Source: Candidatus Sumerlaeaceae bacterium (GTDB taxonomy: Bacteria > Sumerlaeota > Sumerlaeia > Sumerlaeales > Sumerlaeaceae). From it: DNA of 64,000 bases. The notes under the pieces were generated by a model. The model did no database searches. It saw only the letters and a program-made list of their open reading frames with translations, and was not told the DNA's origin. Position 1 is the first letter of the stretch; the number at the start of each line of letters is the position of its first letter. Positions 6,874 through 49,900 of this stretch are shown piece after piece. Position numbers and translations under genes: made by a program. The stretch lies in contig JBMFRB010000004.1 of the NCBI GenBank assembly GCA_049968255.1, positions 228,986 to 292,985 of the forward strand, written 5' to 3'.

Positions 6874-9000
6874 ATGAACAAGCCTGAAAGAACAGTGACG
6901 CCGTGGCACGATCTCGACGAAGAAATGTTATTGCGGCGAGGGGCATTCGTCGTCGCTCTGCTGGCGCTCGTTGTGAGATTAGCTTATTATGTCGAGCTCG
7001 CCTCGAAACCATATTTCGGCGTGCCCATCCTCGATAGTCGCTGGTGGTTAGACGAAGCGCAGCGTGTCGTCACATCCGGGTTTGCAGCAGGCAGAGCCTT
7101 TTTCCGCCCCCCTCTCTATACGTTATTTCTTGCCGGGGGAACAGCGCTTCTTGGCCGCGATACGACACTGATCGTCCCCCTTCTTCAATTACTCCTCGGA
7201 GTTGGCTTTTGCGTGGTCCTAGTTTTCCTCGGCACCAGAGTTTGCAATCCGCCCGCCGGCCTTGCAGCAGGGTGTTTAGCCGCACTCTACGCGCCACTTG
7301 TTTTCTATGAGGCAGAGCTCCTCAGTGATTCGCTCGCACTGTTCTGGTTGACGGTTTTTCTTTTTTTCTTTGTCGCTGGGCTCCAGCGTAGCAGGGCATC
7401 TCTGTTTTTTTTGGCCGGAGCATCCGTAGGGCTTGCTGCCCTCACTCGCGCTAATGCATTTCCCATCGGCTTGACATTTCTTGTCGGACTTCTCCTTGGG
7501 GGAAGTTGCCAAAGCCGTCGCGACCTGCGAATGCTAGGGGCCGGAGCGTTTGCAGCACCATTTCTCATTCTGGTCGCGCTCCCAACTTTGCACAATATCC
7601 GGATGGGCGATCCTGTGGTGATATGTGGCCAAGGCGGCATCAATTTTTACCTAGGCAACAATCCCCAAGCCAACGGCGCTAATGTAATTTTTCCCCGGCT
7701 TACTGAACAAGGTGCCCGCTATCGCGACGCGGTCGAGGAGTATGCCGTGCTCGGTTACTACGCGGCACAACACGGTTACGACCAAGCCATGCTTCGTTAC
7801 GCCGCCGGCGACCGTCCCCGCTGGAGCGACCTTGACCGTTATTGGTATCACCAAGGACTGGCCTTTTGGGTTCATCAACCAGAAGCGGCCTTCCGGCTCT
7901 ACGTAAAGAAGCTCGTCGCCCTTCTGAATAACCGTGAAGTTCGGAACAATCGGGACTTTCATTTCGCTCGCGAACACGAGTCTCTTGTTTTGCGCTTGCT
8001 TCCGTTTGGATATGGTATCGCATTGGCGCTAGGCGTTTGTGGACTTCTCGCACCCAGGGGCATGCACAAGCCAGGTTTCGGCTGGCTCATGCTTTATCTT
8101 GCTGCATCGTCTTCGACTGTGCTGCTTTACTTCGTTGCGGGCCGTCTTCGCCTCATTGTGTTACCCGCGCTTTTCATTTTTGCAGGTATAGGCGTCGAAC
8201 GATTGTTTACTGCGCTCGCGGAACGCCGTTGGCGCGAGGTGACACGATCGCTTGCGATCATCCTCTGTGTCGGTGCAGCTTCGCTTTATCCTTGGCCGCA
8301 ATTTGATTTTCGGTTCTCCGACGACCAGCTTTTCGGTAGTGGAATTGCCGCCACAGCGTTTCCGGCGGGAGAGTGGGCCATGCTCGCAAACGCATCCCTG
8401 GAAAATGGCCATCCAGAGGCAGCAATCCGTTATGCAAGTCAGGCCGTGACAGCTGAGCCCGGCTTTGCATTCGGATGGCTGGTGTTGGGCAATGCTGCCT
8501 TGGCGTTAGGTGATAACCCGATGGCGCTCGACGCATACAAACGGGCACTCAAGCTCGAACCAACGAGTCTGCGTACGCGCAACAATTTTGCTGTGGCACT
8601 GGAAAATATGGGAAAATATCAGCGTGCCGCAGAAGTCTATCTCGATGTTTTGCGCCAAGACCCCGCTGAACCACGTGCGAACGCAAACTTGTCAGCGTTG
8701 CTTTACAGATGCGGCGACAAGAGTGCTGCGCGCATGTTTGCCCAGATAGCGCTCGACAGTGAGCCAACACTGGCACCCGCGCGCGCTGTTGCAGCTCTGA
8801 CAGACCCAGTGTCCACAACGTCGCCTGCGAGCGTTATCAAGAACCTACCACAGGGATTGCTCGCCGAGCTGACGACACCATTACCGGAGCGGATTGATTT
8901 GACCTCTACGCGCCCGGTCGAGTCAATATTGGCTGAGCTCGAGGGAATGACCTCCGGCGCGCTTACGAGCAAAAAATACAACCACACTATGCAGCGTTGA
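6874..9000 (+). CDS. GT-C (PMT/ArnT-like) polytopic membrane glycosyltransferase with C-terminal TPR repeats
   Basis: About 12 hydrophobic segments, LDS..W and FFRPPLY motifs, GGINFYLGNNP loop; TPR-like helices (WLVLGNAALALGDNPMALDAYKRALKLEP). Confidence 0.75.
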   Translation: MNKPERTVTPWHDLDEEMLLRRGAFVVALLALVVRLAYYVELASKPYFGVPILDSRWWLDEAQRVVTSGFAAGRAFFRPPLYTLFLAGGTALLGRDTTLIVPLLQLLLGVGFCVVLVFLGTRVCNPPAGLAAGCLAALYAPLVFYEAELLSDSLALFWLTVFLFFFVAGLQRSRASLFFLAGASVGLAALTRANAFPIGLTFLVGLLLGGSCQSRRDLRMLGAGAFAAPFLILVALPTLHNIRMGDPVVICGQGGINFYLGNNPQANGANVIFPRLTEQGARYRDAVEEYAVLGYYAAQHGYDQAMLRYAAGDRPRWSDLDRYWYHQGLAFWVHQPEAAFRLYVKKLVALLNNREVRNNRDFHFAREHESLVLRLLPFGYGIALALGVCGLLAPRGMHKPGFGWLMLYLAASSSTVLLYFVAGRLRLIVLPALFIFAGIGVERLFTALAERRWREVTRSLAIILCVGAASLYPWPQFDFRFSDDQLFGSGIAATAFPAGEWAMLANASLENGHPEAAIRYASQAVTAEPGFAFGWLVLGNAALALGDNPMALDAYKRALKLEPTSLRTRNNFAVALENMGKYQRAAEVYLDVLRQDPAEPRANANLSALLYRCGDKSAARMFAQIALDSEPTLAPARAVAALTDPVSTTSPASVIKNLPQGLLAELTTPLPERIDLTSTRPVESILAELEGMTSGALTSKKYNHTMQR

Positions 9001-9294: not shown

Positions 9295-9330
9295 AAAAAA
9301 CTGTGTCCTTTCCGGTGGGGAAAGGACGCA
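9295..9330 (-). terminator. Intrinsic terminator downstream of nuclease paralog 1
   Basis: Inverted repeat TGTGTCCTTTCC / GGAAAGGACGCA followed on the minus strand by a T6 run. Confidence 0.7.
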
Positions 9331-9373: not shown

Positions 9374-12154
9374 TTAGTAGCGTCGCCAACCCTCAACACT
9401 TGCACCTGGTCCAATCGTCACGTCTGCGGAATTTAGAGGTGTCTTGCTCGACACGTTCTGCAAATCAGTGGCGTTGTTGTCCGTGTCGGTGTAAGGGCCA
9501 ACGTTCCCCCCTGGGCGTTTTCGAGCGAACGTTACGGTTGAGCTCCCTGCACTTCCTCCGAAAGCGGTTCCTTCATGGAGATTGTTTGGGTTTGTGGCGC
9601 CACCCAGGAACGAGAATCCATCAATTCTCGATCCACTACCATTAAACACCCCTATCGAGCGGCCCGTGCTGTCACCCATGCCCCCGAACAGCCCGTTCGT
9701 ATTCGTATCTTGAAGGTCCGGCGTCTTTCCTTCGCAAGTTCCTCCATAAGCCTGTGAAGAAATGAGGAAATGTCCGTAGCCAGGCACCGTCCCGTTCAAA
9801 TTGAGCACTTTGTCAGTGGTGTCTCCACCGGCACGACTGCGGAGCTGCCAGCCACTCAGCGAGACCGGAGCACTGGATTGATTAGCCAAAACGATGAATT
9901 CCTTACCTGCGGTTCCATCGCTGCCGCGGGTTGAAACCATTACAATTTTTATCGTGCCCGAGTTCGGGTTCTGAACTGCGACTGGGGTCGTTCCCTGGGA
10001 AGCAAACGTAGGGTCTACGTCCGCACCGCCGCTAGGTGCATGAACAATGCCGTTTGCGGTCAGGGTAATTTGGAAGTTTGTGGCGTCCGGAGCGCTTGCC
10101 GCAAGATCGGCAGCAACAACAAAGCGACTTGTGGTCGGTGTAATTCGCCAACTGCCCGCGCCAAAGTAAAAGCCGCCACCACTGATGGTCGTTGAGTCAA
10201 TGAGCGTGTCGCCCGGCGTGACCGACTGGCTATTGTCAGCGTCATAATAGAGCTTCACTGCGGAAATCCCGCTGTCAGGACACGTGCCAGATTTTGTGAA
10301 GCTCATCGTGTTCACGTCCCATTCGTTGGAGTTCGCTGTGAGGGCGACACTGAGCAATGCAACATTTGTGGCGCCGGCTAAAACCGTCGAAGGAGCCACG
10401 TTGCCGACTGCAACAGAAAGTGTATCTCCGTCGGACACCCCGCCTGTCACGGTGGCGCTGTTGCTGGCGAACGTCGAAAACGTCGGATTGATGTCACTCC
10501 CACCGGTGGAAGAGCTGACAAGGCCATTTGAGTTCACAGCGAGGGCAATAGTCCGGCCATTGACAAGTGTGCCACTGAAGGTGGCCACGAGAAGCAAATC
10601 AACCTGAGTGTTTGTAATCCGCAACGGCGATGACAGGGAAAGTGTGGCGCTGCTGCCAGAAAATGTCGCCGACGCCAGAAGCACATCGCCATTGTCCACG
10701 ATCGCGTTCGCATTGGCATCGTGGTATAGCTCGGTTGAGATCACGCTGCTGTCGGCCAGCGTCCCACTCTTGCTCACGGAGACGCTTCCGAGATCCCACT
10801 CGTTAGAAGCGGCAGCACACCGTATTCGGATGAACGGGACATCGGTCAGGCCCGGCGTGATAGTCGTCGGCGCAAGATCCGCGAAGGTCACATTCAACGG
10901 GTCACCATTTGACACCCCTCCCGTCACAGTTGCCGCGTTGCTAGCAAAGGCACTGAAGCTAGGATCGAGATCGTTTCCTCCCGACGTGGCGTGAATGATC
11001 GAATTCGCGTCGATCTGCAGCCGCAATGCCTGGCCACTTGGCGCAGAACTTGACACTGTGGCAACAACGAGAAACGCTGCCGGTGTTGTAGTAACCCGCG
11101 ACGGCAAGCTGCATGTCAAAGTTGCTGTTGCGCCGCTGAAAGTCTGTGTCGCTACGAGCGTGTCCGCACTTGTGACAGTTCCACTTTGATCAACGTCACG
11201 GTAAAGGCGGACTTGCGTGATATTTGACGAGGCCAGAGTGCCAATGTTGCGCACTGTCACTGCAGACAAGTCCCATTCATGGGCCGATGCCGTCAGCGTA
11301 AACGAAATCACCGGATAATTTACGGCTCCAGCACTCACCGTTGCCATGGCCCTGTTTGTAAAACTCACACTGACAGAGTCACCGTTGCTTACCGGAGACC
11401 AAATGAGATTGGCAAACTCTGGCCGGTCGATGAAGGGGTTTCGATTGTGCTGATAGGTTTGGTAGATTTTATCGTTGCGGGTGCGCTCGGCATCGTCCGG
11501 CGGATCCTGAGCGTGCCACTGGAGCAAGGTCGAAAGGACTCCCATTTGACCATAGTTTGGGGAAACAGTGTCGAGCAATAGGAGATCAGACTCGCCCCCC
11601 GTTCCGTCGTACCGCACGTCCATGTAGAAAAGCGCGCGGGCCACGTCGCCCTTCTGCGCATCGCGCGGTTCGAACTTGGTAGAAGTCCAGTAATTCCCGT
11701 AGCCGGAGCCCGTGTAGGACGGGTAAACATTGTCGAACACACTGTTGCCCCGGCTGCTATTGAGCGACGCGTCTTCGGCAAACAGGTGATGAAGATCGCT
11801 CTTTTTGGGCGAAACGTCGGCACCAAGCGATTGCGGCCACAAATGCTCACGGTTCCATGTAGAGCCAAATGATGATTTCGGTACCGACGTTCCCTTGTAA
11901 TGCAACAGAACATTGTTCGAGTTGTTCGGATCCTCGTCGAGATCCTTGAGAGCCCCTTCGGTCGCTGTGTAAGAAATCACCGTGTGGTTCTTGATAATGT
12001 TATGGAGGGCATTCTTGAGTGCTGTGCCCGACAATCCTTCCGCACTGTCATAATATCCCGGAGGTGGGCCTGCAATAGCGGCTAAGGCGAAAAAAACTGC
12101 GACTGAACATGCACCTCTGCGGGAATACGAGTGAAGTGATATTCGCGAGCTCAT
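9374..12154 (-). CDS. Secreted endonuclease I family nuclease with 3 tandem 159-aa repeats and lamin-tail-like domain (paralog 1)
   Basis: Signal-like N-terminus (ALAAIA-GPPPGYY); WNREHLWPQS, DLHH, NSSRGN, KGDVARALFYMDVRY and QHNRNPFID motifs; LTD-like EFIVLAN...SLSGWQL; start moved to the ATG at 12154. Confidence 0.9.
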   Translation of the reverse strand: MSSRISLHSYSRRGACSVAVFFALAAIAGPPPGYYDSAEGLSGTALKNALHNIIKNHTVISYTATEGALKDLDEDPNNSNNVLLHYKGTSVPKSSFGSTWNREHLWPQSLGADVSPKKSDLHHLFAEDASLNSSRGNSVFDNVYPSYTGSGYGNYWTSTKFEPRDAQKGDVARALFYMDVRYDGTGGESDLLLLDTVSPNYGQMGVLSTLLQWHAQDPPDDAERTRNDKIYQTYQHNRNPFIDRPEFANLIWSPVSNGDSVSVSFTNRAMATVSAGAVNYPVISFTLTASAHEWDLSAVTVRNIGTLASSNITQVRLYRDVDQSGTVTSADTLVATQTFSGATATLTCSLPSRVTTTPAAFLVVATVSSSAPSGQALRLQIDANSIIHATSGGNDLDPSFSAFASNAATVTGGVSNGDPLNVTFADLAPTTITPGLTDVPFIRIRCAAASNEWDLGSVSVSKSGTLADSSVISTELYHDANANAIVDNGDVLLASATFSGSSATLSLSSPLRITNTQVDLLLVATFSGTLVNGRTIALAVNSNGLVSSSTGGSDINPTFSTFASNSATVTGGVSDGDTLSVAVGNVAPSTVLAGATNVALLSVALTANSNEWDVNTMSFTKSGTCPDSGISAVKLYYDADNSQSVTPGDTLIDSTTISGGGFYFGAGSWRITPTTSRFVVAADLAASAPDATNFQITLTANGIVHAPSGGADVDPTFASQGTTPVAVQNPNSGTIKIVMVSTRGSDGTAGKEFIVLANQSSAPVSLSGWQLRSRAGGDTTDKVLNLNGTVPGYGHFLISSQAYGGTCEGKTPDLQDTNTNGLFGGMGDSTGRSIGVFNGSGSRIDGFSFLGGATNPNNLHEGTAFGGSAGSSTVTFARKRPGGNVGPYTDTDNNATDLQNVSSKTPLNSADVTIGPGASVEGWRRY
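9960..11390 (-). repeat. Three intragenic ~477-bp (159-aa) tandem repeats
   Basis: Units start GDSVSV, GDPLNV and GDTLSV about 477 nt apart; each has an (H/N)EWD, LY.D.(D/N)....V..(G/A)D and (S/T)GG.D..P.F motif; boundaries approximate. Confidence 0.85.
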
Positions 12155-12218
12155 GGGATTCCCTTTCCTGAACTTGAAAAAGATACCTACACCACGCAGA
12201 GACAAAACGGTTTGCAAC

Positions 12219-12254
12219 AAAAAAAAAGCGGCTAGCGTAGCCTCGGCCAGCCGC
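12219..12254 (-). terminator. Intrinsic terminator between the two nuclease paralogs
   Basis: Minus strand reads GCGGCTGGC-loop-GCTAGCCGC followed by T9. Confidence 0.85.
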
Positions 12255-12280
12255 CGCGGTTTCGCTGATGCCTTCCTGTG

Positions 12281-15076
12281 TCACTCTACGGAGAAAGCGG
12301 AAAGGACTGTTGGCAAATTCATAGCCGAAGACTTTGGTGTTTTGCTTGCCACCACCAGGAGATCCGTAGAATTATTGTCTGTGTCGAAGTAATATAGCGT
12401 CCCCGGCACGGTCTTTCTAGCATACGAGTTTATAGCACTACCGCTATTCCCCGAGAAAGCTGTACCATCCCGGTAATAATTCACGTCATTTGTCGCACCG
12501 CCAGCAAACGAAAATCCATCGATTTTGTTCGCTGACGCCGCTGTCCCGTCGTAAAGAGCAATCGAACGTCCTGTAGTGTCGGCCATTCCGCCAAATAAAC
12601 CGTTCGTGTTTGTGTCCGAAAAGTCAGGCGTAAGCCCCTCGCAAGAACTTCCGTACGGGTTCGATGCGATAAGGAAAAATGATTTTGCGGGAATGGTTCC
12701 TGTCAACGTGATAGGAGAGCCATCGCTTGTTGAACTACCTGCCCGAGTCCTGAGTTGCCAATTGTTGAGCGATACCGGAGAGGCCTCGTGGTTAGCTAGC
12801 ACGATAAACTCCTGAGATGCAGTTCCAGCGCTGCTCCGTGTCGATACCATCACAATCTTCACCTTGGGTAAAGTTGGATTGATGACGGCTACAAGGTTAC
12901 TCGCTTGGTCAGCGAATGTGGGATTTGTATCGGTGCCTCCCGAAGGGGAATAAACGATTCCGTTGGCATTGACCTTGATTCCAACCATGCGTCCGCTTGG
13001 CGACGATGCGGCGAGGTCAGCGGCAATGATAAGCCTCACCGGTGCGGGCGTCACACGCACAGCGCCCCCTACCTGAAATGTAGCTGCGCCACTGCTAAGC
13101 GTGCGGAAATCAATCAGGGCTTCCTCACTGTCAATCTGGTCATTTCCGTTTTCATCCACATAAAGTTTCACCGCTGCAACGGCCGAATCATCCGCATTTC
13201 CCAACTTCGACACCGCGATCGTTCCGACATCCCACTCGTTCGCACTGGCTGTGAGCGTGAGTTTCAGGAGTGGAACATTTGTCGCACCAAGCGTTGCTGT
13301 CGTGGGTGCAAGGTTTGTGCTTGATACGCTTAGCGTGTCACCATCGTGAACTCCTCCGGTGACGGTGGCAAGCGCGGTTGAAAAATTCGAGACAGAAGGA
13401 TTGAAATCGTTGCCACCGGTCGGTGAGCTCGTGAAGCTGTTTCCAAGCACCTGAATGCCAATGGTCTGACCGTTGGAAAGTAAACTCGCGGTGTCCAACG
13501 TCACCAAAAACTGGGCGCCTACCGTTGTCACCCGCTGTGGCTGAGTCAAAGAAAAGGTTGCCTGCCCACCGGCGAAGGCACGTGTATCCAACAATGTGTC
13601 GCCGGCGTCGGCCACACCGTCCTGATCATTATCGAGATAGAGCCTTACAGCCGTGATTTGATTATCAGGCACGGTTCCTGTTTTGGCCACGCTGAAACCA
13701 GCAAGGTCCCATTCGTTCGAATTCGCGGTCAGATTCACTGAGACAAACGCTACGTTTGAAGCACTTGGCACAATCGTTGCAGGCGCTCTGTCGGTAAAGC
13801 TGATATTTACTGTATCGCCGTCGCTCACACCGCCGCTCACTACAGCCGCAGTGCTACTGAACGCGGTGAAAGAAGGATCCACATCGTTTCCCCCGGTGCT
13901 CGCGTGCATTAGGCTGTTGGCGTTCACTTGGATCTGCAAGGTCTGGCCTGACGGCGCGGTTGTCGCGATGTCGGCTGTGATGAGGAAGTGGACGGTCTGA
14001 GTCGTGACGCGTGAAGGATAGGCACAGTTTAGGGTTGCATTTGCCGAACTGAACGTTGAAGTGGCTAACAAAATATCGCCAGGCGATACGCTCCCACTAT
14101 TATCCATATCGCGGAAAAGTCGAACGGCCTGGATGAAGTTGTCGGCCAATGTCCCAACATTGGACACACCCACCGACTGAATGTCCCACTCACCCGTGTT
14201 TGCCGTCAGTTCTAAAGACAGCAGAGAATAATTCGTGGCGCCAGCAGCCACCGTTGCAGCTGCGCGGTTTGTGTAACTCAAAGACACTGTGTCATTGTCG
14301 GTCACCGGCCCCCAGATCAAATAAACAAACTCTGGATGATCTACAAAAGGGTTTCGGTTGTGCTGAAACAACGCGTAAATCTGGTCGTTGCGTTGCTGCT
14401 CGCGTGCATCTGGAAGATCAAACCAGTGCCATTGCAGAAGCGTTGGGAGGACCCCCATTTCGTCATAGGCCGGCGCTGTTGTATTCTTAAGGACAAGGTC
14501 CGGTTCCCCGCCAGTTCCATCGTATCGCACGTCCATATACAGGAGTGCCCGTGCAACGTCGCCCTTTTGCGGATCCCGCACCTCGAAGCGTGTACCGGTC
14601 CAATAATTGCCGTAGGCCGAATTTGTCTGGTTCGGGTAAACGTTATCAAACACGCTGTTGCCGCGGCTGCTGTTGAGCACAGCATCCTCCGAAAAAATAT
14701 GGTGGAGATCTGTGTTCGGAGGAAGAACATCAGCGCCGAGGGACTGTGGCCAGAGATGCTCGCGGTTCCATGTTGTGCCAAAATTCGCCTTTGGCTCTGA
14801 GGTTCCCTTGTAATGCAGCAAGACGTTATTGGTGTTATTCGGGTCCTCATCCAGGAGTTTGAGGGCTGCCCGCGTGTCCGTCGTGCTGCTGCTCGTGTAA
14901 GGCAGCACCGTGTGGTTCTTGATGATGTTGTGCAATGCTTGGCGCAAAGCATTGCCAGACAGCCCCATGGCGGAGTCATAGTAGCCTGGTGGCGGCGCCG
15001 CCAACACATTGGCAACAAGGGCCCCGCAAATGATGCCCCAGAGGAGGCGTGGCAGGCGTGGGTTTTGCGTTGTCAT
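12281..15076 (-). CDS. Secreted endonuclease I family nuclease with 3 tandem 159-aa repeats and lamin-tail-like domain (paralog 2)
   Basis: Signal peptide ending VLA-APPPGYY; WNREHLWPQS, DLHH, KGDVARALLYMDVRY and QHNRNPFVDHPE motifs; colinear with paralog 1; ATG at 15076 preceded by AGGGAAG. Confidence 0.9.
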   Translation of the reverse strand: MTTQNPRLPRLLWGIICGALVANVLAAPPPGYYDSAMGLSGNALRQALHNIIKNHTVLPYTSSSTTDTRAALKLLDEDPNNTNNVLLHYKGTSEPKANFGTTWNREHLWPQSLGADVLPPNTDLHHIFSEDAVLNSSRGNSVFDNVYPNQTNSAYGNYWTGTRFEVRDPQKGDVARALLYMDVRYDGTGGEPDLVLKNTTAPAYDEMGVLPTLLQWHWFDLPDAREQQRNDQIYALFQHNRNPFVDHPEFVYLIWGPVTDNDTVSLSYTNRAAATVAAGATNYSLLSLELTANTGEWDIQSVGVSNVGTLADNFIQAVRLFRDMDNSGSVSPGDILLATSTFSSANATLNCAYPSRVTTQTVHFLITADIATTAPSGQTLQIQVNANSLMHASTGGNDVDPSFTAFSSTAAVVSGGVSDGDTVNISFTDRAPATIVPSASNVAFVSVNLTANSNEWDLAGFSVAKTGTVPDNQITAVRLYLDNDQDGVADAGDTLLDTRAFAGGQATFSLTQPQRVTTVGAQFLVTLDTASLLSNGQTIGIQVLGNSFTSSPTGGNDFNPSVSNFSTALATVTGGVHDGDTLSVSSTNLAPTTATLGATNVPLLKLTLTASANEWDVGTIAVSKLGNADDSAVAAVKLYVDENGNDQIDSEEALIDFRTLSSGAATFQVGGAVRVTPAPVRLIIAADLAASSPSGRMVGIKVNANGIVYSPSGGTDTNPTFADQASNLVAVINPTLPKVKIVMVSTRSSAGTASQEFIVLANHEASPVSLNNWQLRTRAGSSTSDGSPITLTGTIPAKSFFLIASNPYGSSCEGLTPDFSDTNTNGLFGGMADTTGRSIALYDGTAASANKIDGFSFAGGATNDVNYYRDGTAFSGNSGSAINSYARKTVPGTLYYFDTDNNSTDLLVVASKTPKSSAMNLPTVLSAFSVE
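12870..14300 (-). repeat. Three intragenic ~477-bp (159-aa) tandem repeats
   Basis: Units start DNDTVS, DGDTVN and DGDTLS 477 nt apart, with conserved EWD and DxDxxG-like loops; boundaries approximate. Confidence 0.85.
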
Positions 15077-15168
15077 CTCGGTCACTTCCCTTTGCGAGGA
15101 TTGAACCACTAAAACAGATCAGAATAGCGACAGCCTTATTCCCAATTCAATAGGATTTGTCGCCGCGT

Positions 15169-16347
15169 TCAAATCTGCGCCAGGGCTTGAGCCAGATCAT
15201 CGATGAGATCTTGCGAATCCTCAATTCCCACCGATAGGCGAACCAGCTCGTCCAAAATTCCCAAGCGTTTGCGTTCTTCGGGCGGATAATCGTAATAGGA
15301 AATGGTCATAGGATGAGTGACAAGCGCCTCGACACCACCAAAAGAGGGACCGATCTTGAAAAGTCTCAGCGCAGATAAGAACTTCAATGTCCGCTCCAGG
15401 TTCGCATTGAGTTCAAACGTGACCACTCCGCCGCAACCGCGCATGTACTTCAGCGCGAGCCTGTGGTCGTGGTGCGACGGAAGCCCAGGATAATAGACCT
15501 TGCGGACGCGTGGATGGCGCTCGAGAAATTGCGCCACCAGAAAACCGTTTGTGTTGTGCCGCTCCATGCGTATGGCCAGTGTCTTCAAACCGCGCAGGAG
15601 CAGGTAACTCGTCACAGGATCCATGACCCCGCCAGTCGTGTTACGGTAGTCGCGGATAAGCTCGATGAGATCCTTGCGACCCAACGCTGCGCCGCCGAGC
15701 AAGTCGTTGTGCCCGCCCAGGTATTTGGTCGCGCTATGCACAACGAGATCTGCTCCTTGCGCGAGCGGTTGCTGGTTCACAGGTGTTGCAAACGTCGCAT
15801 CTACCACAAGAAGGAAACCATAGCGCTCCTTGAGCTCGCGTAGGGTGTCCATGTCCGCAATGTTGAGGTAAGGATTCGTCGGCGACTCACTAAGCACGAG
15901 TTTGGTTTCGGGGTGCTCACGCAGGACCTGTTCCATTTCATTGTAGTCGCCCATTTTCACCACACTTGTGCGAATGCCGAAGCGCGGAAGCACCTTTTCA
16001 CAAAACATCAACGTCTTCTTGTAGACGTCATCAGTAAGGATGAGGCGATCACCTTCGTGCAGGAGACCAAGAAGCGTGCAGCTCACCGCCGTCATTCCAG
16101 AATCGAAAACTTCCGCGTCTTCCGCCCCTTCGAGCTCACGAAGTTTTTTGATCACCACAGCGGTGGTGGGATTACCGTATCGACCGTACTCAAAACGGTC
16201 AACTTTGCCAGTGACGTAATCCAGAACCTCTTCCATTGTGGCAAATGTATACGAGGAGGTGAGGACGATAGGCGTCGTGATAGAATCCATGTACTGACGT
16301 TCGGGCTCACCTGCATGAACCGCTCGTGTCGAAATCCCCAGAGTCAT
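15169..16347 (-). CDS. PLP-dependent transsulfuration enzyme (cystathionine gamma-synthase/lyase family)
   Basis: YGRYGNPT, ESPTNP, DATFATP and the PLP-lysine motif HSATKYLGGH, RLSVGIE; start moved to the ATG at 16347. Confidence 0.92.
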   Translation of the reverse strand: MTLGISTRAVHAGEPERQYMDSITTPIVLTSSYTFATMEEVLDYVTGKVDRFEYGRYGNPTTAVVIKKLRELEGAEDAEVFDSGMTAVSCTLLGLLHEGDRLILTDDVYKKTLMFCEKVLPRFGIRTSVVKMGDYNEMEQVLREHPETKLVLSESPTNPYLNIADMDTLRELKERYGFLLVVDATFATPVNQQPLAQGADLVVHSATKYLGGHNDLLGGAALGRKDLIELIRDYRNTTGGVMDPVTSYLLLRGLKTLAIRMERHNTNGFLVAQFLERHPRVRKVYYPGLPSHHDHRLALKYMRGCGGVVTFELNANLERTLKFLSALRLFKIGPSFGGVEALVTHPMTISYYDYPPEERKRLGILDELVRLSVGIEDSQDLIDDLAQALAQI

Positions 16348-16595
16348 TGAATAAATCTCCAGTTTATTAGTCGAGATTTTCCGCAACCACTCCTAAAATC
16401 GCAGGTGCACTAGATTCAGCCTCGTTCTTCTCTCCATAAAAACCACTTGCACACTGCGGCTCCATTCAGCGAGGAATTAGGGCGAGAAATGCAAGACAGA
16501 TCGGCGAGGCCCACGGACTCTCACCGCGAGGCTTCGCCGAATGAGCGATTTTGGAACGTTTTATTTCAATCTATTCTGTTCGAGGAAAGTGCCAC

Positions 16596-18203
16596 GTGCC
16601 TACTAAGCAAAATCCCATAGGGTACCTCTGTCTGGTTCTCCACGCCCATCTGCCCTTTGTGCGACATCCGGAGTTTGAAGATCCGCTCGAGGAGGACTGG
16701 CTCCACGAGGCCATCACAGAAACCTATCTGCCCTTGCTCAGCTACATGGAAGATTTCCTTCGCGATGGCATAGATTTTCGCCTCACGATGAGCATCACGC
16801 CCCCCCTTGCGGCCATGCTGGGCGACAAACTCCTTCAAGATCGCTATATTCGGCATCTAGAAAAGCTCATCGAACTGGCTGAAAAAGAAACTATACGCAC
16901 GCGATTCCAACCTGAGTTCAACGCTCTCGCCCACATGTATTTGCGTAAATTTCGCCATTGCTACAGCATGTTTGCTGAAAAGTACCGAGGGAACATTCTC
17001 GAAGGCTTCCGCCAGGTGCAGGAAACGGGTAAGCTGGAAATTATCACATGTGGCGCAACACATGGCTTCCTCCCGCTTCTCAATGTCAACGATGCCGCCG
17101 TGCGCGCCCAAGTGACTGTCGGCCGACAGGCCTACGAGCATACCTTTGGGCGCTCGCCGCGTGGAATCTGGAACGGAGAATGTGGGTACTATCCAGGCCT
17201 CGATGAGCATTTGGCAGCCAACGGAATCCGCTTCTTCTTTGTGGACGCTCACGGCATTCTCCACGCAAGCAAGCGCCCACGCTATGGCGTCTATGCGCCG
17301 CTTTATTGCCCCAGTGGCGTTGCGGCTTTCGGTCGCGATCCTGAATCGTCTAAATCCGTCTGGAGTGCCGAAGAAGGCTATCCCGGCGATTACAACTATC
17401 GCGAGTTCTATCGCGACATCGGTTTCGATCTCGACTACGAGTACATCCGCCCCTACATCCATGAGAGTGGGCTACGTATCAATACGGGGATAAAGTACTA
17501 CCGCATCACAGGCAAAACTGCCCACAAAGAGCCTTACAACTACGAGCGCGCACTTGAGGTCGCGGCGACTCACGCGGGCAACTTTATGTTCAACCGTCAG
17601 AAGCAGGCCGAGTACCTTCGTAGCCTCATGGATCGGCCGGCTATTATTGTGTCACCCTACGACGCAGAACTTTTTGGACATTGGTGGTACGAAGGGCCAG
17701 ATTTTCTCAATTTCCTCACTCGCAAAATGCATTTCGATCAAGACATGCTGGCCATGATCACACCGAGCGAGTACCTCGAACTTTACCCCAAAAATCAGGT
17801 AGCTGTGCCTTCGCTCTCGAGCTGGGGACACAAAGGCTATTGCGAGGTCTGGCTAGAGGGCAGCAACGATTGGATCTATCGACATCTCCATAAAGCGGCG
17901 GACCGCATGGTGGAGCTCGCTAACCAATATCGACACACCTCTGATCGTCTCATTGAGCGAACACTCAACCAAGCCGCACGGGAACTGTTGCTGGCGCAAT
18001 CGAGCGATTGGGCGTTCATCATGAAAACGCGGACAATGGTCGAATATGCGGTGAGACGCACCAAGCAGCACATTTTGGCTTTCACGGACCTCTATGAAAT
18101 GGTCAAGCGGGGTCAGATTGACGAGGGCTATCTCAGTGACCTCGAATACCGGAACAATATATTCCCCTTCCTCGACTTCCGAGTCTACGCGACGGAGAAG
18201 TGA
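16596..18203 (+). CDS. GH57 1,4-alpha-glucan branching enzyme (DUF1957-containing)
   Basis: LVLHAHLPFVRHP, ATHGFLP, W.GECGY, PYDAELFGHWWYEG and LLAQSSDWAF motifs; GTG start at 16596 after GAGGA. Confidence 0.93.
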   Translation: MPTKQNPIGYLCLVLHAHLPFVRHPEFEDPLEEDWLHEAITETYLPLLSYMEDFLRDGIDFRLTMSITPPLAAMLGDKLLQDRYIRHLEKLIELAEKETIRTRFQPEFNALAHMYLRKFRHCYSMFAEKYRGNILEGFRQVQETGKLEIITCGATHGFLPLLNVNDAAVRAQVTVGRQAYEHTFGRSPRGIWNGECGYYPGLDEHLAANGIRFFFVDAHGILHASKRPRYGVYAPLYCPSGVAAFGRDPESSKSVWSAEEGYPGDYNYREFYRDIGFDLDYEYIRPYIHESGLRINTGIKYYRITGKTAHKEPYNYERALEVAATHAGNFMFNRQKQAEYLRSLMDRPAIIVSPYDAELFGHWWYEGPDFLNFLTRKMHFDQDMLAMITPSEYLELYPKNQVAVPSLSSWGHKGYCEVWLEGSNDWIYRHLHKAADRMVELANQYRHTSDRLIERTLNQAARELLLAQSSDWAFIMKTRTMVEYAVRRTKQHILAFTDLYEMVKRGQIDEGYLSDLEYRNNIFPFLDFRVYATEK

Positions 18204-38415: not shown

Positions 38416-38889
38416 TCAAAAGTACTGAAGGCTTTCCTTCTTGTACTCTTTCGTACTCAACAACAGACGATACTCCGTCACGCCCGTTTTTTCTGAAACT
38501 TCGCGCGCAATTTGTTCGCAGCGCTCGAAAGTTTCACAGTGCATCATACCGAAGAGGTTGTAGGGCCAGGTCGGGTAGGTTGGCCGCTCATAGCAGTGTG
38601 TGATTTCCTTATAGCTCATAAGCACTTCCGCTACTTCACGCGCCTTTTGCCTGTCCGGAACTCGCCAAACACTCATCGCATTGAAAACTTTTCCGACTTT
38701 CTGGTGCTTCAGCACAGCTCCCATCCGTCGGATGATGCCTTTCTTCTTCCACTCGGCAATTTTCTCGAACAATTGGTTTTCGCTCATGCCACAGCGTCGC
38801 GCGATCTCCTCGTATGGATGCAGAGTATCTAGCGGAATCGTTCCCTGAAGTTCGCGGACGATGGACTTCTCAAGATCAGTGAGGGCCAT
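38416..38889 (-). CDS. ahbB: Siroheme decarboxylase subunit beta (AhbB/NirH-like, Lrp/AsnC fold)
   Basis: GIIRRMGAVLKHQKVG, NAMSVW, THCYERP..WPYNLFGMMH and STKEYKK motifs. Confidence 0.88.
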   Translation of the reverse strand: MALTDLEKSIVRELQGTIPLDTLHPYEEIARRCGMSENQLFEKIAEWKKKGIIRRMGAVLKHQKVGKVFNAMSVWRVPDRQKAREVAEVLMSYKEITHCYERPTYPTWPYNLFGMMHCETFERCEQIAREVSEKTGVTEYRLLLSTKEYKKESLQYF

Positions 38890-38892
38890 GAT

Positions 38893-39423
38893 TCACTCCT
38901 CCGTACCCGCTGTATCGGGCGCCGTTGCCTGGGTGGACGGGCCAATTTCAAAATTCACAAAAATCTTGTGCATACGGACCGTTGGCAGGTAGAGCACGTC
39001 CGTCACCCCGGTGCGCTTCTTAATTTCATCCAAAGTGTCCATGAGCTGCTGGCGAGAAGGTGCTGCAAGCGTAAACCAGAGGTTGTAGTCGTGTTCACGT
39101 TTATAGTTGTGCGACACTCCTGCATACTCGCTCACAAACTCGCCAACTTCATCTATGCGTTCCGGCGGGACGCGCATGGCAATGAGTGCGCTCATAAACC
39201 CGAGCTTTTTGGTGTCAAAAACCGCGCCAAGTCGCCGAATAATTCCGCGCTCGACCAGATCAAGAACGCACTCAAACACCTGTTCTTCTGTCACATTTCC
39301 GATTTGCTTCGCCATCTCAGCATAAGGGGAGTGCGCAACAGGAAAGCCGGTCTGGATCACGTTCAGAACAGCCCGATCCAGCTCCGACAGAGAGTCAACA
39401 AGAGATTTGCCATGTGTGCTCAT
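38893..39423 (-). CDS. ahbA: Siroheme decarboxylase subunit alpha (AhbA/NirD-like)
   Basis: LNVIQTGFPV...PY, GIIRRLGAVFD..KLG, GVSHNYKR and YNLWFT motifs. Confidence 0.88.
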   Translation of the reverse strand: MSTHGKSLVDSLSELDRAVLNVIQTGFPVAHSPYAEMAKQIGNVTEEQVFECVLDLVERGIIRRLGAVFDTKKLGFMSALIAMRVPPERIDEVGEFVSEYAGVSHNYKREHDYNLWFTLAAPSRQQLMDTLDEIKKRTGVTDVLYLPTVRMHKIFVNFEIGPSTQATAPDTAGTEE

Positions 39424-46958: not shown

Positions 46959-49900
46959 TCAGTTGCCTAGTTGGAGGGTGATCCCCCTCAGCTGTTGGCC
47001 TGGGCCTATCCAGAAAGAGGGAAGAGCTAGCCACTGGCCGCCACCCACCAATGAGGAGTCAAAGTATAGAAGCTGGTGCGACCCGCTCATGACATGTCCG
47101 ATGATGAAATCACCGGACGAGTTCGTTGTCGCTTTACGAACAAGCGAGTAATAAACGTTGCGCGGAACCCCAAATCCGTCGAACACAGGCATAAGCTGCA
47201 CAGCGACGCCTGCAACTCCAGCACCCGCTGCGTTGCTCGCTTTACCGGCCACGTAGCTAGTTGGGAGTTCGAATAGCATCCTATTTTCGCCCCTCTGAAG
47301 GTATGCTGTTTGCCACACCGCATAGCTCGAAGCAGGTCCGTATCCTGTGGACCAGGCAAAGTACTGTCCGGGCGGCACCGAGTTGATCCGGAACTGAGCG
47401 TTGGTGAGACCGCCATCGTAGCGGATGTCCTCGATCACGTTTCCGTATTCGTCAAAAGGTTGCAAATGGACAGTTCCGCTGCGCACAACCCCTTGACCCG
47501 ATACCACCGAGCCGACAACGTTCGCGCTTGTCTCAAGTTGGAAGTTCTGCTCGGATGTTTCTCCAGCCACGATGTCCACTGGGCGAAAGACGTAAACGCG
47601 TCGGCCACTGACGTTAGCTTCCACCACCAACGGCCAGCGGCCCGGTCGCACGCCAAGCAAAAGATAGTTGCCGAAGGAATTTGTCCGCGTTTCTTTCGTA
47701 GGATAAACACCGCTGACGCGCACTTTTGCCCAGTTAACCCCGTAGCCATCCTCATCAAGCACGACCCCTTGCACGCTTCCGCCAGCTTCCAAATAAATGC
47801 GTCCAAGGTCGGTGGTCCCACGCTGACGCACGACAACTTGGTCAATCCTTGAGGAGATGTAATTCGGATGTTCGAGCTCTAACACGTAGGTGCCGGCGGC
47901 TGCCGTTCCCACGCGGAAGAAACCCGAGTAATCCGTGCGTGCCGTTAGGGCCGTCTGGCGCGCTTCCTCTTCGGTCTTCTCTGGATTTGCCAAGCGTACG
48001 GTCACGTCGTTGATAGGACGATCCGTTTCCGACGAGTAGACATACCCAATCACGCCGCCGGCTTGCTTCAGGCGAATTTTCGGAATGACGGTGCGCCGAG
48101 ACGGTCCGATCACAAGGTTTTCGTTCTGGAAAACTTCGTAGCCCTCTGCTGTGAGCGTGAAGGAATAAATCCCGCGTGGGATGTTCACGATGCGGAAAAA
48201 TCCGCGAGCGGAAAAACAGTCGCGGTCCAGGTTGAAGATAAAATCTTGTTTTGGGGAAGTGTCTCGACGCGACCTCAGCCGAATGTGGAAGTTGTCAACG
48301 GGTCGGTTATCCTCTCCCTCCACTGTTCCCACCGCACTGTTGTTGACGTCGCATTCGATCTCCAAATTTGTTGTCCCAGCCTTCACATCTAACCGGAAGA
48401 ATTCATAGTTTTGTTCCCCGTCTGGAGTTTTCAGCGGGAAATTGGCCCGCACGTCGAAAAGGCCGCGACCAAGATTCTTCAGCACGTAGTTTCCCAATTT
48501 GTCTGTCAGTGTTTCATCGCGGCCAGGGACGTATTTATGCGGAACAGCGCGCACCCGTGCATCAGCAATCGGTTTGCCCTCAAGCGTGATTAGACGTCCG
48601 GTGATCTGAAGACCCTCCACCAAAGTGAAGTTCACGTCCTCTTTGCGCTCCCCCTCAGCCAGCTGAAGACTACGGTAACCATCGACAAAGCCAGATTTTG
48701 AAACGCGGAGTCGCCCCTTGCCAGGCGTGCAGAAGCTAATGGAGTAAGACCCATCCGCGGCGGTCTGGACTGATCGCGGCTTGTATGACGGATCCATCGG
48801 AAATTCTTCGCTCGTGAACTCCACCTGTGCGTCAGCGATTGGGAGTTTGCGCTCATCCGTGACACGCCCCGAAACACTCGCGCCCGGGGTGAGGACAATT
48901 TGCGTCGAGGCATAGGGTTTCGACGCAGTGAGGTCAATGAGCTTACTTCGAGCTCGCGCGTAGCCTGTCTTTTGTGCGCTTGCATACAATTGCAGGTGCT
49001 CGCCAACATCAATGCCCCACAATTTGAAATAGCCGCTCGCATCGGTTTTCCCTTTCAAGCTATCCACATTGATGCGCCGTGGCGTGGTGGCTGAGACGAA
49101 GAGCTGCACCTCTGCGCCTTCCACACCTCGTCCCAAATGGTCCAAGACGAAGCCATCCACACTGCCGCCCCGGCCTAAGCGCAAACTAACGTCAGATTTG
49201 CGTTCGCCTGGCAAGAGCGTGAAGGTCTGCGCACTTGCACCGCTTGATGCGCTGGGAACGTAGCCTTGCGCCTCGGCCTGAAGTCGCACCAAACCCGCTG
49301 GCAGCGCCTGCAACTCGAAACCACCCGTCGCGTCCGTCACAGCACGGAACTCCCGTTTGCGCGGCTGAAGCAAACCGTAAGTGCATTCCGCGCGCACCTT
49401 TGCATTGCTAATGGGCGTGTCGCTTGCCGCATCCAATACCCGGCCCTTCACCAGGCACTTTTCATAAACTTCGAGAACAGCCTGCGGTGAAGGTTTGTCC
49501 CGCTCACATTTTATCCCCTCGAGCGGCTCGCTGGCGATATCGGGGCTAATGCAGAAAAGCTTGTAACTGCCATAGGGGAGTCTCACGAGTGCAAAAGCGC
49601 CTGTGGCATCTGATTTCGCTTCGCGCGTAACCGTTGTTCCTTTTATGCTGGCCTGAGCCGCGATAGTGATGGCAGCGGGCGTAGTTGGGCGATCAATAAA
49701 CACCGCAGCTCCCCGAATGGAAGCCCCTCGCTCGAGACGGCAAACTTGGCGCAAAGTCCCGGGCGAAACTAGGGGAAAGATAGCCGGCGCAAAATCTTGA
49801 TGCTCGACCGAAAGATCGTAGAAGCCCTCTGTCGCCAGTTTTTCGAAAGCAAATTCGCCTTTGCTGTTCGACAGACGTTTGTAGCGATCCTCATCCGGGA

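Follow-up and report, generated by a model that had tools for sequence, protein, structure and literature searches.

Two conserved short C-terminal tails on tandem secreted nucleases of Sumerlaeota

Two adjacent genes in a 64,000-nucleotide stretch of DNA from a Candidatus Sumerlaeaceae bacterium (the window) encode secreted nucleases that can be aligned almost to their ends and then finish in two different short peptides. Are these endings signals under selection, and what could they be for? Short C-terminal tags determine whether bacterial exoenzymes remain on the cell or go free, and to our knowledge all well-described ones need either a membrane helix or an entire folded domain. A sequence-only reading of the locus had proposed that the two endings are interchangeable tags recognised by an export or surface-attachment machinery. 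Our analysis confirmed the observation behind this proposal and partly supported its interpretation.

The nuclease gene pair and its products

The two genes lie in tandem on the minus strand, at positions 9374-12154 (paralog 1, stop codon 9374-9376) and 12281-15076 (paralog 2, stop codon 12281-12283), within ORFs spanning 9374-12220 and 12281-15109 of the same strand. The internal ATG codons at 12154 and 15076 are the starts of the database forms P0003 and P0018, and give proteins of 926 and 931 amino acids, respectively. Both genes are closed by real stops, followed by terminator-like hairpins with a T-run, at 9305-9327 (minus strand) after paralog 1 and at 12230-12242 (minus strand; stem longer by eye) between the genes. 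The hairpin scan found 4 sites against a shuffle mean of 6.9, i.e. no excess over shuffled sequence, so only the position of the hairpins right after the stops counts. The neighbouring genes in the window encode DnaE, a PMT_2/TPR membrane protein, a tRNA-Phe and a Cys/Met PLP enzyme, and no candidate partner for the tails adjoins the nuclease genes there. A total of 55 related loci (995 kb) were retrieved, two of them from Sumerlaeota (L001 and L002). L001 has unannotated ORFs that match the window neighbours in size and order.

BLASTP comparison found 512 identities over 895 positions (57%) between the two paralogs, and the local alignment breaks off exactly at ...SKTP-L-N-S-A in paralog 1 and ...SKTP-K-S-S-A in paralog 2. 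Colinearity thus runs to the end of the last domain, and the tails beyond it, of 16 residues in paralog 1 (T1) and 13 residues in paralog 2 (T2), are unrelated, as the sequence-only reading had described. The gene for the T2 protein followed by that for the T1 protein was found in all three Sumerlaeota loci (window, L001 and L002).

Both proteins begin with a signal peptide, judged by eye in agreement with the earlier claim, of 28 residues in paralog 1 (12071-12154, minus strand) and 26 residues in paralog 2 (14999-15076, minus strand). Each has a basic n-region, a hydrophobic core of 14-15 residues and a small-x-small site directly preceding P-P-P-G-Y-Y, the conserved start of the mature protein; among the full-length relatives listed, this start is likewise preceded by a variable hydrophobic N-terminus. 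An Endonuclease I domain (Pfam PF04231) follows, at 11417-12028 (minus strand; residues 65-268 of P0001) in paralog 1 and at 14330-14956 (minus strand; residues 52-260 of P0002) in paralog 2, with E values of 1.6e-40 and 2.7e-31 and scores of 139.8 and 109.5 bits, respectively, against a cut-off of 25. The nuclease heads were modelled poorly by AF2, with pLDDT below 50 over residues 56-170 and 1-164. The Sumerlaeota nucleases probably serve to forage extracellular DNA.

The head is followed by a stalk of three Ig-like repeats, which match no Pfam family in either paralog. In paralog 1 the repeats, of about 155 residues each (9986-11374, minus strand), are beta-sandwiches in the AF2 model, with block pLDDT mostly 80-96; those of paralog 2 (12887-14287, minus strand) were likewise modelled with AF2, and a Foldseek search matched tandem Ig-like arrays, e.g. 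those of PrgB and pilins. By these matches, the layout of head, stalk and C-terminus resembles that of surface-anchored proteins.

The last domain is a lamin-tail domain (LTD, PF00932), at 9425-9967 (minus strand, as far as ...T-P-x-N-S-A; Pfam match to residues 752-867 of P0001) in paralog 1 and at 12323-12865 (minus strand; Pfam match to residues 749-865 of P0002) in paralog 2. The latter scores 36.2 bits, above the gathering score of 34.3, and the former 31.2 bits, below it; the LTD region of paralog 1 is colinear with that of paralog 2 and forms a beta-sandwich in AF2. A sequence search of the PDB found no solved relative of the LTD and tail.

Conservation, disorder and modularity of the tails

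The T1 tail and its linker occupy 9377-9424 (minus strand), with a nine-residue core, [A/S]-x-V-x-x-W-x-x-Y, at 9377-9403. The T2 tail and its linker occupy 12284-12322 (minus strand), with an 11-residue core, hydrophobic-P-[V/T]-x-L-S-x-F-x-V-E-COOH, at 12284-12316. Comparison of 27 cluster representatives gave the T2 consensus [hydrophobic]-P-V-x-[LVI]-S-x-[F/L/Y]-x-[hydrophobic]-[E/D]-COOH, in which 27/27 have P at -10, S at -6, E/D at -1 and hydrophobic residues at -7 and -2, and 25/27 have V at -9. No T2 protein (0/27) extends beyond the motif, and the linker positions -12 to -18 hold about 0.8-1.9 bits each. The T1 consensus, from 14 cluster representatives, is [A/S]-x-[V/I]-x-x-W-x-x-Y, with W and V/I present in all 14 and Y in 13. 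All 16 matches to the T1 PSSM at 17 bits or more sit 0-7 residues from the C-terminus. Four of the 14 T1 tails carry 3-7 residues past the motif; the free end is therefore not needed for T1.

The motifs are invariant although the LTD regions of their bearers are only 40-61% identical. Codon comparison between the window, L001 and L002 revealed synonymous changes that leave the key tail residues intact, and the position of the stop is fixed across the three loci despite the use of TGA, TAG or TAA. Not one of the other 503 ORFs of at least 60 amino acids in the window has the strict T2 pattern, and among 2380 ORFs of at least 80 amino acids from the 55 loci it occurred only in the two Sumerlaeota nuclease orthologues, which excludes chance. 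Judged by these comparisons, T1 and T2 are conserved motifs under selection and not products of drift, so the two endings are the genuine motifs that they had been taken for.

The T2 PSSM gives T1 tails -4 to -19 bits, and a single motif in a shared register was rejected; the two were accordingly treated as distinct. MAFFT stacks T1 on T2, and hydrophobic residues stand at -2, -4 and -7 in both. Two proteins with T2 bodies, P0134 and P0272, end in Y. The possibility that T1 is a copy of an internal LTD segment was weakly supported, the best LTD-type matches reaching 10-11 bits against 17-27 bits for real tails.

The earlier reading had named structure prediction as a check on whether the tails are simply the final strand of the LTD. 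In both AF2 models the LTD block has pLDDT mostly 70-90 and its last strands end before the tails, at about residue 901 of P0003 and residues 906-909 of P0018, and the tails (residues 917-926 of paralog 1 and 923-931 of paralog 2) have pLDDT below 50 and no strand. Being disordered, the tails are not the last LTD strand, and that explanation was rejected; they lie outside the LTD fold.

Motif bearers number 41, with three further variants, and those named belong to Ca. Sumerlaeaceae or Sumerlaeales, except for one labelled Hydrogenedentota. The tails were found in several contexts, as expected of the modular elements that had been proposed. In some bearers the tail directly follows the LTD; in P0024, P0025 and P0033 it follows the LTD, about 80 further residues and a G-rich linker; in P0027 it follows an fn3 domain, with no LTD even at E<=5; and in P0034 and P0035 it follows a region without a Pfam name. 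It is also carried by P0131, a beta-helix and LTD protein, and by P0129, a protein of 218 amino acids consisting of a signal peptide and LTD.

The further claim that the tails occur on unrelated secreted proteins was not supported: each of the 41 bearers and the three variants carries Endonuclease I or an LTD of this subfamily. The window, the 55 loci (of which the two from Sumerlaeota are syntenic with it) and the homologue searches yielded no unrelated bearer. Some four further proteins of the window that have signal peptides are tailless; the N-terminal part of P0131 as query gave three weak matches besides itself, all tailless; and the Ig-like repeats, which are almost restricted to the nuclease family, gave five matches outside it, again all tailless. 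The last 24 residues, used as a query against the ESM Atlas, returned no usable match.

In a tree computed after removal of the last 20 residues, the tailed proteins formed one group of 37 with support of 99. On this tree the T1 and T2 labels require at least six changes, and T1/T2 sister pairs were found in P0034/P0035 (support 98) and P0128/P0133 (support 96). A single T1 clade was rejected (p-AU 4e-43; the test group was named after the tree was seen). Evidently, one tail type has repeatedly replaced the other, and the tails are swappable as suggested.

Comparison with known sorting signals and the probable origin of T2

Neither tail fits a known class of sorting signal, in line with the earlier reading. 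Pfam searches of both paralogs found no Por_Secre_tail, autotransporter or other sorting domain, and the NCBIfam sorting-signal models gave no match at E<=0.1 with the whole proteins or at E<=10 with the last 45 residues.

The best-known tripartite signals are paired with dedicated enzymes (LPXTG with sortase, PEP-CTERM with exosortase, GlyGly-CTERM with rhombosortase and MYXO-CTERM with myxosortase), and known sorting signals mark many unrelated families. The LPXTG signal consists of L-P-x-T-G, a hydrophobic helix and a basic tail. T2 in the window begins L-P-T-V-L, with only six residues after it and no helix, and this assignment was rejected; the fourth position of the T2 motif is variable across the family (S7, T7, A5, E3 and others). 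PEP-CTERM-type domains combine a signature motif with a transmembrane helix and a basic cluster. PEP-CTERM, GlyGly-CTERM, MYXO-CTERM, PGF-CTERM and related NCBIfam domains were rejected, as no HMM matched at E<=10 and the tails have no long hydrophobic run. Only 13-16 residues come after the LTD, and so a transmembrane helix and a basic cluster are both lacking. T1 and T2 are like LPXTG, PEP-CTERM, GlyGly-CTERM and MYXO-CTERM in being short, lineage-restricted C-terminal signatures of proteins exported by Sec, which a linker separates from the final folded domain, at a position where homologues elsewhere carry such modules. They differ from the tripartite signals in lacking the helix and the basic cluster, in not having been seen on unrelated families and, for T2, in ending with an invariant acidic residue.

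Two further classes were rejected. The T9SS sorting domain (Por_Secre_tail, PF18962) is a C-terminal beta-sandwich of about 70-100 residues, and neither paralog matches it; 34 of the 120 Endonuclease I homologues listed carry it, and none of the 31 tail bearers among them does. Autotransporters and outer-membrane barrels have a C-terminal beta-barrel with alternating hydrophobic residues and an aromatic last residue; no such barrel was found by Pfam or AF2, and T2 ends in E/D. T1 is like the beta-signal of outer-membrane proteins, or a PDZ ligand, in its aromatic end and upstream hydrophobic residues. Unlike in the beta-signal, however, 4/14 T1 tails are not terminal, the hydrophobic residues at -2, -4 and -7 do not strictly alternate, and AF2 predicts Ig-like domains and an LTD but no beta-barrel.

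The proteins also resemble the extracellular nucleases of the ExeM/Xds type in Shewanella and Vibrio, which, in the sections of PMC6085458 that deal with them, join a nuclease to an LTD and to a module for localisation at the C-terminus. ExeM of Shewanella is described there as an LTD nuclease with an N-terminal LTD, an EEP nuclease domain and a GlyGly-CTERM-type anchor made up of a helix and four arginines. The Sumerlaeota proteins differ in having Endonuclease I, a C-terminal LTD and a tail without a helix. A literature search, covering its sources in part, returned no description of the T1 or T2 motifs, and the portions of PMC8092238 and PMC10866078 retrieved under envelope and secretion terms held nothing relevant.

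Homologues in other phyla have an FN3-like domain that separates the LTD from the T9SS sorting domain, and T2 matches the first strand of this FN3-like domain. P0066 and P0116 have the order LTD, a domain starting L-P-V-x-L-S-S-F-T-A-T, and then Por_Secre_tail, and the starts of these domains are the best internal matches of the T2 PSSM among 280 proteins, at 23.4 and 21.2 bits (training median 23.4 bits). The FN3-like domains of P0066, P0116 and P0221 are related to each other and weakly related to fn3 regions. All three proteins thus agree with the resemblance first noted between tail 2 and a strand ahead of T9SS sorting domains. T2 shares with the strand of T9SS cargo its P, V, hydrophobic, S, F and small hydrophobic positions. 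The Sumerlaeota proteins, unlike T9SS cargo, stop after the strand, with E/D replacing T, and have neither the rest of the FN3-like domain nor Por_Secre_tail. A local search of the window, L001 and L002 for this remainder as a separate ORF found none at E<=10. T2 was probably derived, on this sequence likeness, from the first strand of an FN3-like domain, the rest of which was lost while the strand was kept and re-used.

Possible functions of the tails

The reading that we prefer, at a probability of about 0.4, is that the tails are peptides for docking or retention, which would engage a partner outside the nuclease. Both nucleases are Sec-exported, stalk-shaped extracellular proteins, with an Endonuclease I head, three Ig-like repeats and an LTD, after which a short low-complexity linker leads to a linear motif of 9-11 residues, unfolded alone. 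We infer that this motif would bind its partner, most likely by contributing a beta-strand, the candidates being a scaffold of the envelope or surface or a factor in export or processing, and that binding would set the destination of the enzyme, e.g. held at the cell versus released. T2 would require a free carboxyl end directly after the acidic residue, and T1, built around V-x-x-W-x-x-Y, would tolerate a few extra residues. The two tail types may then give the tandem paralogs different partners or fates. Such binding would be like donor-strand complementation in chaperone-usher and type V pili, where a short terminal peptide with patterned hydrophobic residues is unfolded alone; the tail could complete an Ig-like fold in the partner, and T2 would by origin itself be a strand of an Ig-like (FN3) fold. 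Unlike in the donor-strand systems, no acceptor with an incomplete fold was found in the window, L001 or L002, and there are no pilus genes nearby. If this reading is true, a conserved 10-residue helix-free tag in two interchangeable flavours is a different solution from the described tags, and a first handle on how surface enzymes are organised in an uncultured phylum.

The tails could instead act within the nuclease family, each binding a domain that belongs to this family, either in cis or on another molecule (e.g. T1 with a T2 protein), in regulation or oligomer formation and with no outside machinery. This we consider unlikely, although the restriction of the tails to proteins with the nuclease or this LTD speaks for it, as do the tandem T1 and T2 genes in 3/3 loci, the recurring T1/T2 sister pairs, and the resemblance of T2 to a conserved internal LTD segment, P-V-x-L-S-G-W, which gives weak T2 PSSM matches (12.7 bits in P0010 and P0011). 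However, AF2 docks neither tail onto its own chain, a result that leaves room for tail-head contact because the head is poorly modelled. A complex prediction of LTD with T1 against LTD with T2 gave a score of 0.00 and a mark of 0.32, which argues neither for nor against binding. The tails persist without the LTD in P0027, P0034 and P0035 and without the nuclease in P0129 and P0131, so neither domain is an obligatory receptor. Should the tags be confined to the nuclease family, the finding would be a narrower one, of a peptide for regulation or assembly that is specific to the family, and whose origin, in the re-used first strand of a lost domain, would be unusually clear.

A system of sorting signals spread over many unrelated secreted proteins of the phylum, with a dedicated sorting enzyme or anchor as for LPXTG and PEP-CTERM, draws on the same evidence as the docking-peptide reading. 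It would also fit the taxonomy of the named bearers, Sumerlaeaceae or Sumerlaeales with the one Hydrogenedentota, and the T9SS or GlyGly-CTERM modules that homologous nucleases carry at the position of the tail, as if by a choice of anchor (for GlyGly-CTERM, from the cited sections on ExeM). We nevertheless hold it to be quite unlikely, given that the sequences examined (window, 55 loci and homologue searches) contain no unrelated bearer and that the tails offer an intramembrane enzyme neither a transmembrane helix nor a basic cluster. The fullest form of the idea seems equally doubtful, namely a helix-free C-terminal sorting or anchoring system in Sumerlaeota in which T1 and T2 are the ligands, an FN3-derived 10-residue donor strand inserts into envelope acceptors, the two flavours correspond to two acceptors or fates, and other secreted proteins share the tags.

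By analogy with tail-specific proteases, the tails might also be C-terminal pro-peptides or ligands whose free end is recognised by a PDZ-type processing or quality-control protease, leading to removal or turnover. The strictly terminal position of T2, with E/D last in 27/27, and the short, disordered nature of the tails behind a flexible linker are consistent with this. Against it speak the extension of 4/14 T1 tails and the fact that residues as far as 10 positions from the end are invariant, which is more than typical PDZ ligands are known to show; no PDZ-type protease gene is found nearby, and we rate the protease explanation as highly unlikely.

That T2 is a mere remnant, the first strand of an FN3-like pre-sorting domain since lost, as its match to the domain starts of P0066, P0116 and P0221 might suggest, and T1 lineage noise, neither being functional, is very improbable indeed, as the motifs stay invariant over divergent LTD regions, the stop is fixed despite differing stop codons, the key residues survive synonymous changes, and T1 is no less conserved and turns up again on separate branches.

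The paralogous nuclease genes and their C-terminal position

Two adjoining ORFs on the minus strand, at 9374..12220 (paralog 1) and 12281..15109 (paralog 2), encode nucleases with 57% identity (512/895, BLASTP), and the alignment stops exactly at SKTP-L-N-S-A in the former and SKTP-K-S-S-A in the latter. The database forms begin at internal ATGs, at 12154 for paralog 1 (P0003, 926 residues) and at 15076 for paralog 2 (P0018, 931 residues); the mechanical ORF starts, TTG at 12220 and GTG at 15109, lie upstream of these (stretches 12155-12220 and 15077-15109), and a purine-rich stretch precedes the ATG at 12154. Both proteins carry a predicted signal peptide (judged by eye), followed immediately by a conserved P-P-P-G-Y-Y and then, by Pfam, by Endonuclease I, three repeats of about 155 residues that match no Pfam family, and a lamin-tail domain (LTD, PF00932). 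Beyond the LTD end there are 16 residues in paralog 1 (9377-9424) and 13 in paralog 2 (12284-12322), with zero identical positions between them. A terminator-like hairpin was found 3′ of each gene, and tRNA-Phe downstream of paralog 1. The sequence-only reading had placed and described the pair as colinear paralogs with divergent tails, and the ORFs, the BLASTP end point and the tails all agree with it.

Structure search of paralog 2 with Foldseek returned tandem arrays of Ig-like domains, PrgB and pilins among them, and both paralogs have the appearance of stalked surface enzymes. Each Ig-like repeat (9986-11374 and 12887-14287, minus strand) contains an invariant E-W-D, and the repeats are nearly confined to this nuclease family, with only five outside matches (P0276-P0280), among them an Abditibacteriales protein.

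That neither tail fits a known sorting signal, as first proposed, was borne out: Pfam found no Por_Secre_tail or barrel in the two paralogs, no NCBIfam sorting model matched the whole proteins or, at E<=10, their last 45 residues, and the tails are too short to hold both a transmembrane helix and a basic cluster. Homologues fill the same position with localisation modules, namely Por_Secre_tail in 34 of the 120 Endonuclease I homologues listed (manual count), and a GlyGly-CTERM-like anchor in ExeM of Shewanella (PMC6085458). In other lineages, many of the Endonuclease I homologues (P0046, P0049, P0055, P0062, P0067, P0070, P0080, P0088-P0090, P0094-P0096, P0098, P0102, P0109, P0110 and P0117) share the ending F-[F/L]-R-[L/V]-[R/K]-[V/A]-x-x-x, which from its sequence looks like another lineage-specific C-terminal domain in this position. 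A separate set of LTD proteins from the search of representatives (P0135, P0138, P0141, P0143, P0144, P0161, P0206, P0214, P0226 and P0252) has a conserved C-terminal region of about 45 residues, containing Cys and Trp and ending with two hydrophobic residues and then Glu, which may represent a further C-terminal module with an acidic end.

Conservation and exchange of the T1 and T2 motifs

The full-length search scored 7998 candidates, of which 995 were relatives at E<=0.001 (120 of these listed), and the search of 1.84 billion representatives with LTD plus tail gave 303 matches at E<=0.001 (150 listed). The tail of paralog 2 belongs to motif T2, [L/V/C/T]-P-V-x-[L/V/I]-S-x-[F/L/Y]-x-[hydrophobic]-[E/D]-COOH, found in at least 27 cluster representatives, with P, S and the terminal acidic residue each in 27/27 and V in 25/27; it is the very C-terminus, with extra residues in 0/27. 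The tail of paralog 1 belongs to motif T1, [A/S/T]-x-[V/I]-x-x-W-x-x-Y, found in at least 14 representatives (W and V/I in 14/14, Y in 13/14), four of which have 3-7 residues beyond it. Positions of the preceding linker were much less informative than the motifs. Variants are P0134/P0272 (a T2 body with terminal Y), P0132 and P0038. T1 and T2 are distinct motifs, because T1 tails score negative on the T2 matrix.

Among the matches listed, all named bearers are Candidatus Sumerlaeaceae or Sumerlaeales, bar one labelled Hydrogenedentota. The 14 closest non-self LTD relatives (E<=1e-17) comprised 10 with T2, 2 with T1 and 2 variants, and the other 135 LTD proteins listed included none with the strict T2 pattern and none reaching 17 bits on the T1 matrix. 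On that matrix true tails scored 17-27 bits, with 16/16 within 7 residues of a C-terminus, and no other sequence exceeded 13.8 bits. Of 503 window ORFs, just the two paralog genes contain the motifs. Across 55 loci (2380 ORFs) the strict T2 pattern is confined to the two Sumerlaeota orthologues; the chance background is negligible. In the window and the two syntenic Sumerlaeota loci, L001 and L002, key tail residues were unchanged despite synonymous codon changes, and the stop codon kept its position, being TGA, TAG or TAA. No description of the motifs was found in the literature searched, nor anything relevant on secretion or the envelope in the Sumerlaeota genome papers PMC8092238 and PMC10866078. 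T1 and T2 are thus real, undescribed, lineage-restricted C-terminal motifs.

The proposal that the tails are modular and swappable also held. They occur directly after the LTD; after a stretch of about 80 residues and a run of glycines that follows the LTD (P0024, P0025, P0033); after an fn3 domain in P0027, where LTD was undetected even at E<=5; and after a region unnamed by Pfam (P0034, P0035); as well as on a beta-helix plus LTD protein (P0131) and a 218-residue protein of signal peptide plus LTD (P0129). In a family tree built without the last 20 residues, tailed proteins formed one group of 37 (support 99), within which the T1/T2 labels require at least 6 changes, with supported T1/T2 sister pairs P0034/P0035 (98) and P0128/P0133 (96). 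Constraining T1 to a single clade was 311 log-likelihood units worse (p-AU 4e-43, for a group chosen after tree inspection). The order T2 then T1 was found in 3/3 Sumerlaeota loci, and among the relatives listed three further T1/T2 pairs come from contigs of equal length, which hints at the same arrangement.

Origin and possible role of the tails

Judged by sequence comparison, the evolutionary origin is clear for one of the two motifs, T2. Two T9SS-lineage homologues, P0066 and P0116, have Endonuclease I and LTD, next an unannotated region of about 120 residues, opening with L-P-V-x-L-S-S-F-T-A-T, and then Por_Secre_tail. A T2 matrix built from the 27 tails minus their last residue and scored on all 10-mers of 280 proteins gave its best internal matches at these region starts (23.4 and 21.2 bits; training median 23.4), followed by the T9SS protein P0221 (14.8 bits). 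The three regions are mutually related, and weakly related to fn3 segments called by Pfam. By both position and sequence, T2 is thus the counterpart of the first strand of the FN3-like domain ahead of the T9SS sorting domain, a likeness that the sequence-only reading had correctly pointed out. The Sumerlaeota proteins end immediately after this strand, with an acidic residue replacing threonine. T1 lacks a counterpart of this kind.

AlphaFold2 models of both full-length paralogs, from 23-row alignments, were confident for the Ig-like repeats and reasonably so for the LTD, and the tails (residues 917-926 of paralog 1 and 923-931 of paralog 2) had pLDDT <50 and no secondary structure; a tail forming the last LTD strand, which the sequence-only reading had named as refuting its proposal, was not seen. 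The Endonuclease I heads also had pLDDT <50 (residues 1-164 of paralog 1 and 56-170 of paralog 2) despite their well-known fold, probably because the alignment was too shallow. The models are not reliable there, so a tail might still touch the head.

The interpretation given in the sequence-only reading is supported in part. We tentatively favour, at a probability of about 0.4, the reading that the tails are docking peptides which would bind a partner outside the nuclease, plausibly by adding a beta-strand to it, and would thereby determine localisation or processing. This is suggested by the stalked surface-enzyme appearance and the localisation modules at the same place in homologues, and by a peptide that is short, disordered and strongly selected, with T2 needing a free end. 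A self-binding or pairing element internal to the family is unlikely. A phylum-wide sorting system, the strong form of the original proposal, is somewhat less likely again: each bearer found carries the nuclease or an LTD of this subfamily, two further searches aimed at other tail-bearing families returned none, the window encodes about four more proteins with a signal peptide but no tail, and no candidate reader lies near the gene pair in the window. A pro-peptide or protease ligand is improbable, and a vestige without function very improbable, compared with docking peptides.

Neighbouring genes

A 708-residue membrane protein with PMT_2 (protein mannosyltransferase-like) and TPR regions, at 6874-9000 on the plus strand, adjoins the nuclease pair, and an ORF matching it in size and place lies at 16030-18165 (minus strand) of L001. 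Given how abundant Ser/Thr is in the nuclease stalks, exoprotein glycosylation is conceivable. A 1290-residue protein at 46959-50831 (minus strand), with a hydrophobic N-terminus, at least 7 CarboxypepD_reg repeats and no T1/T2 tail, is probably a large protein of the envelope or surface. Two adjoining genes at 38416-39423 (minus strand) carry NirDL-like HTH and AsnC-type domains, like siroheme decarboxylase subunits, which hints at the alternative haem pathway.
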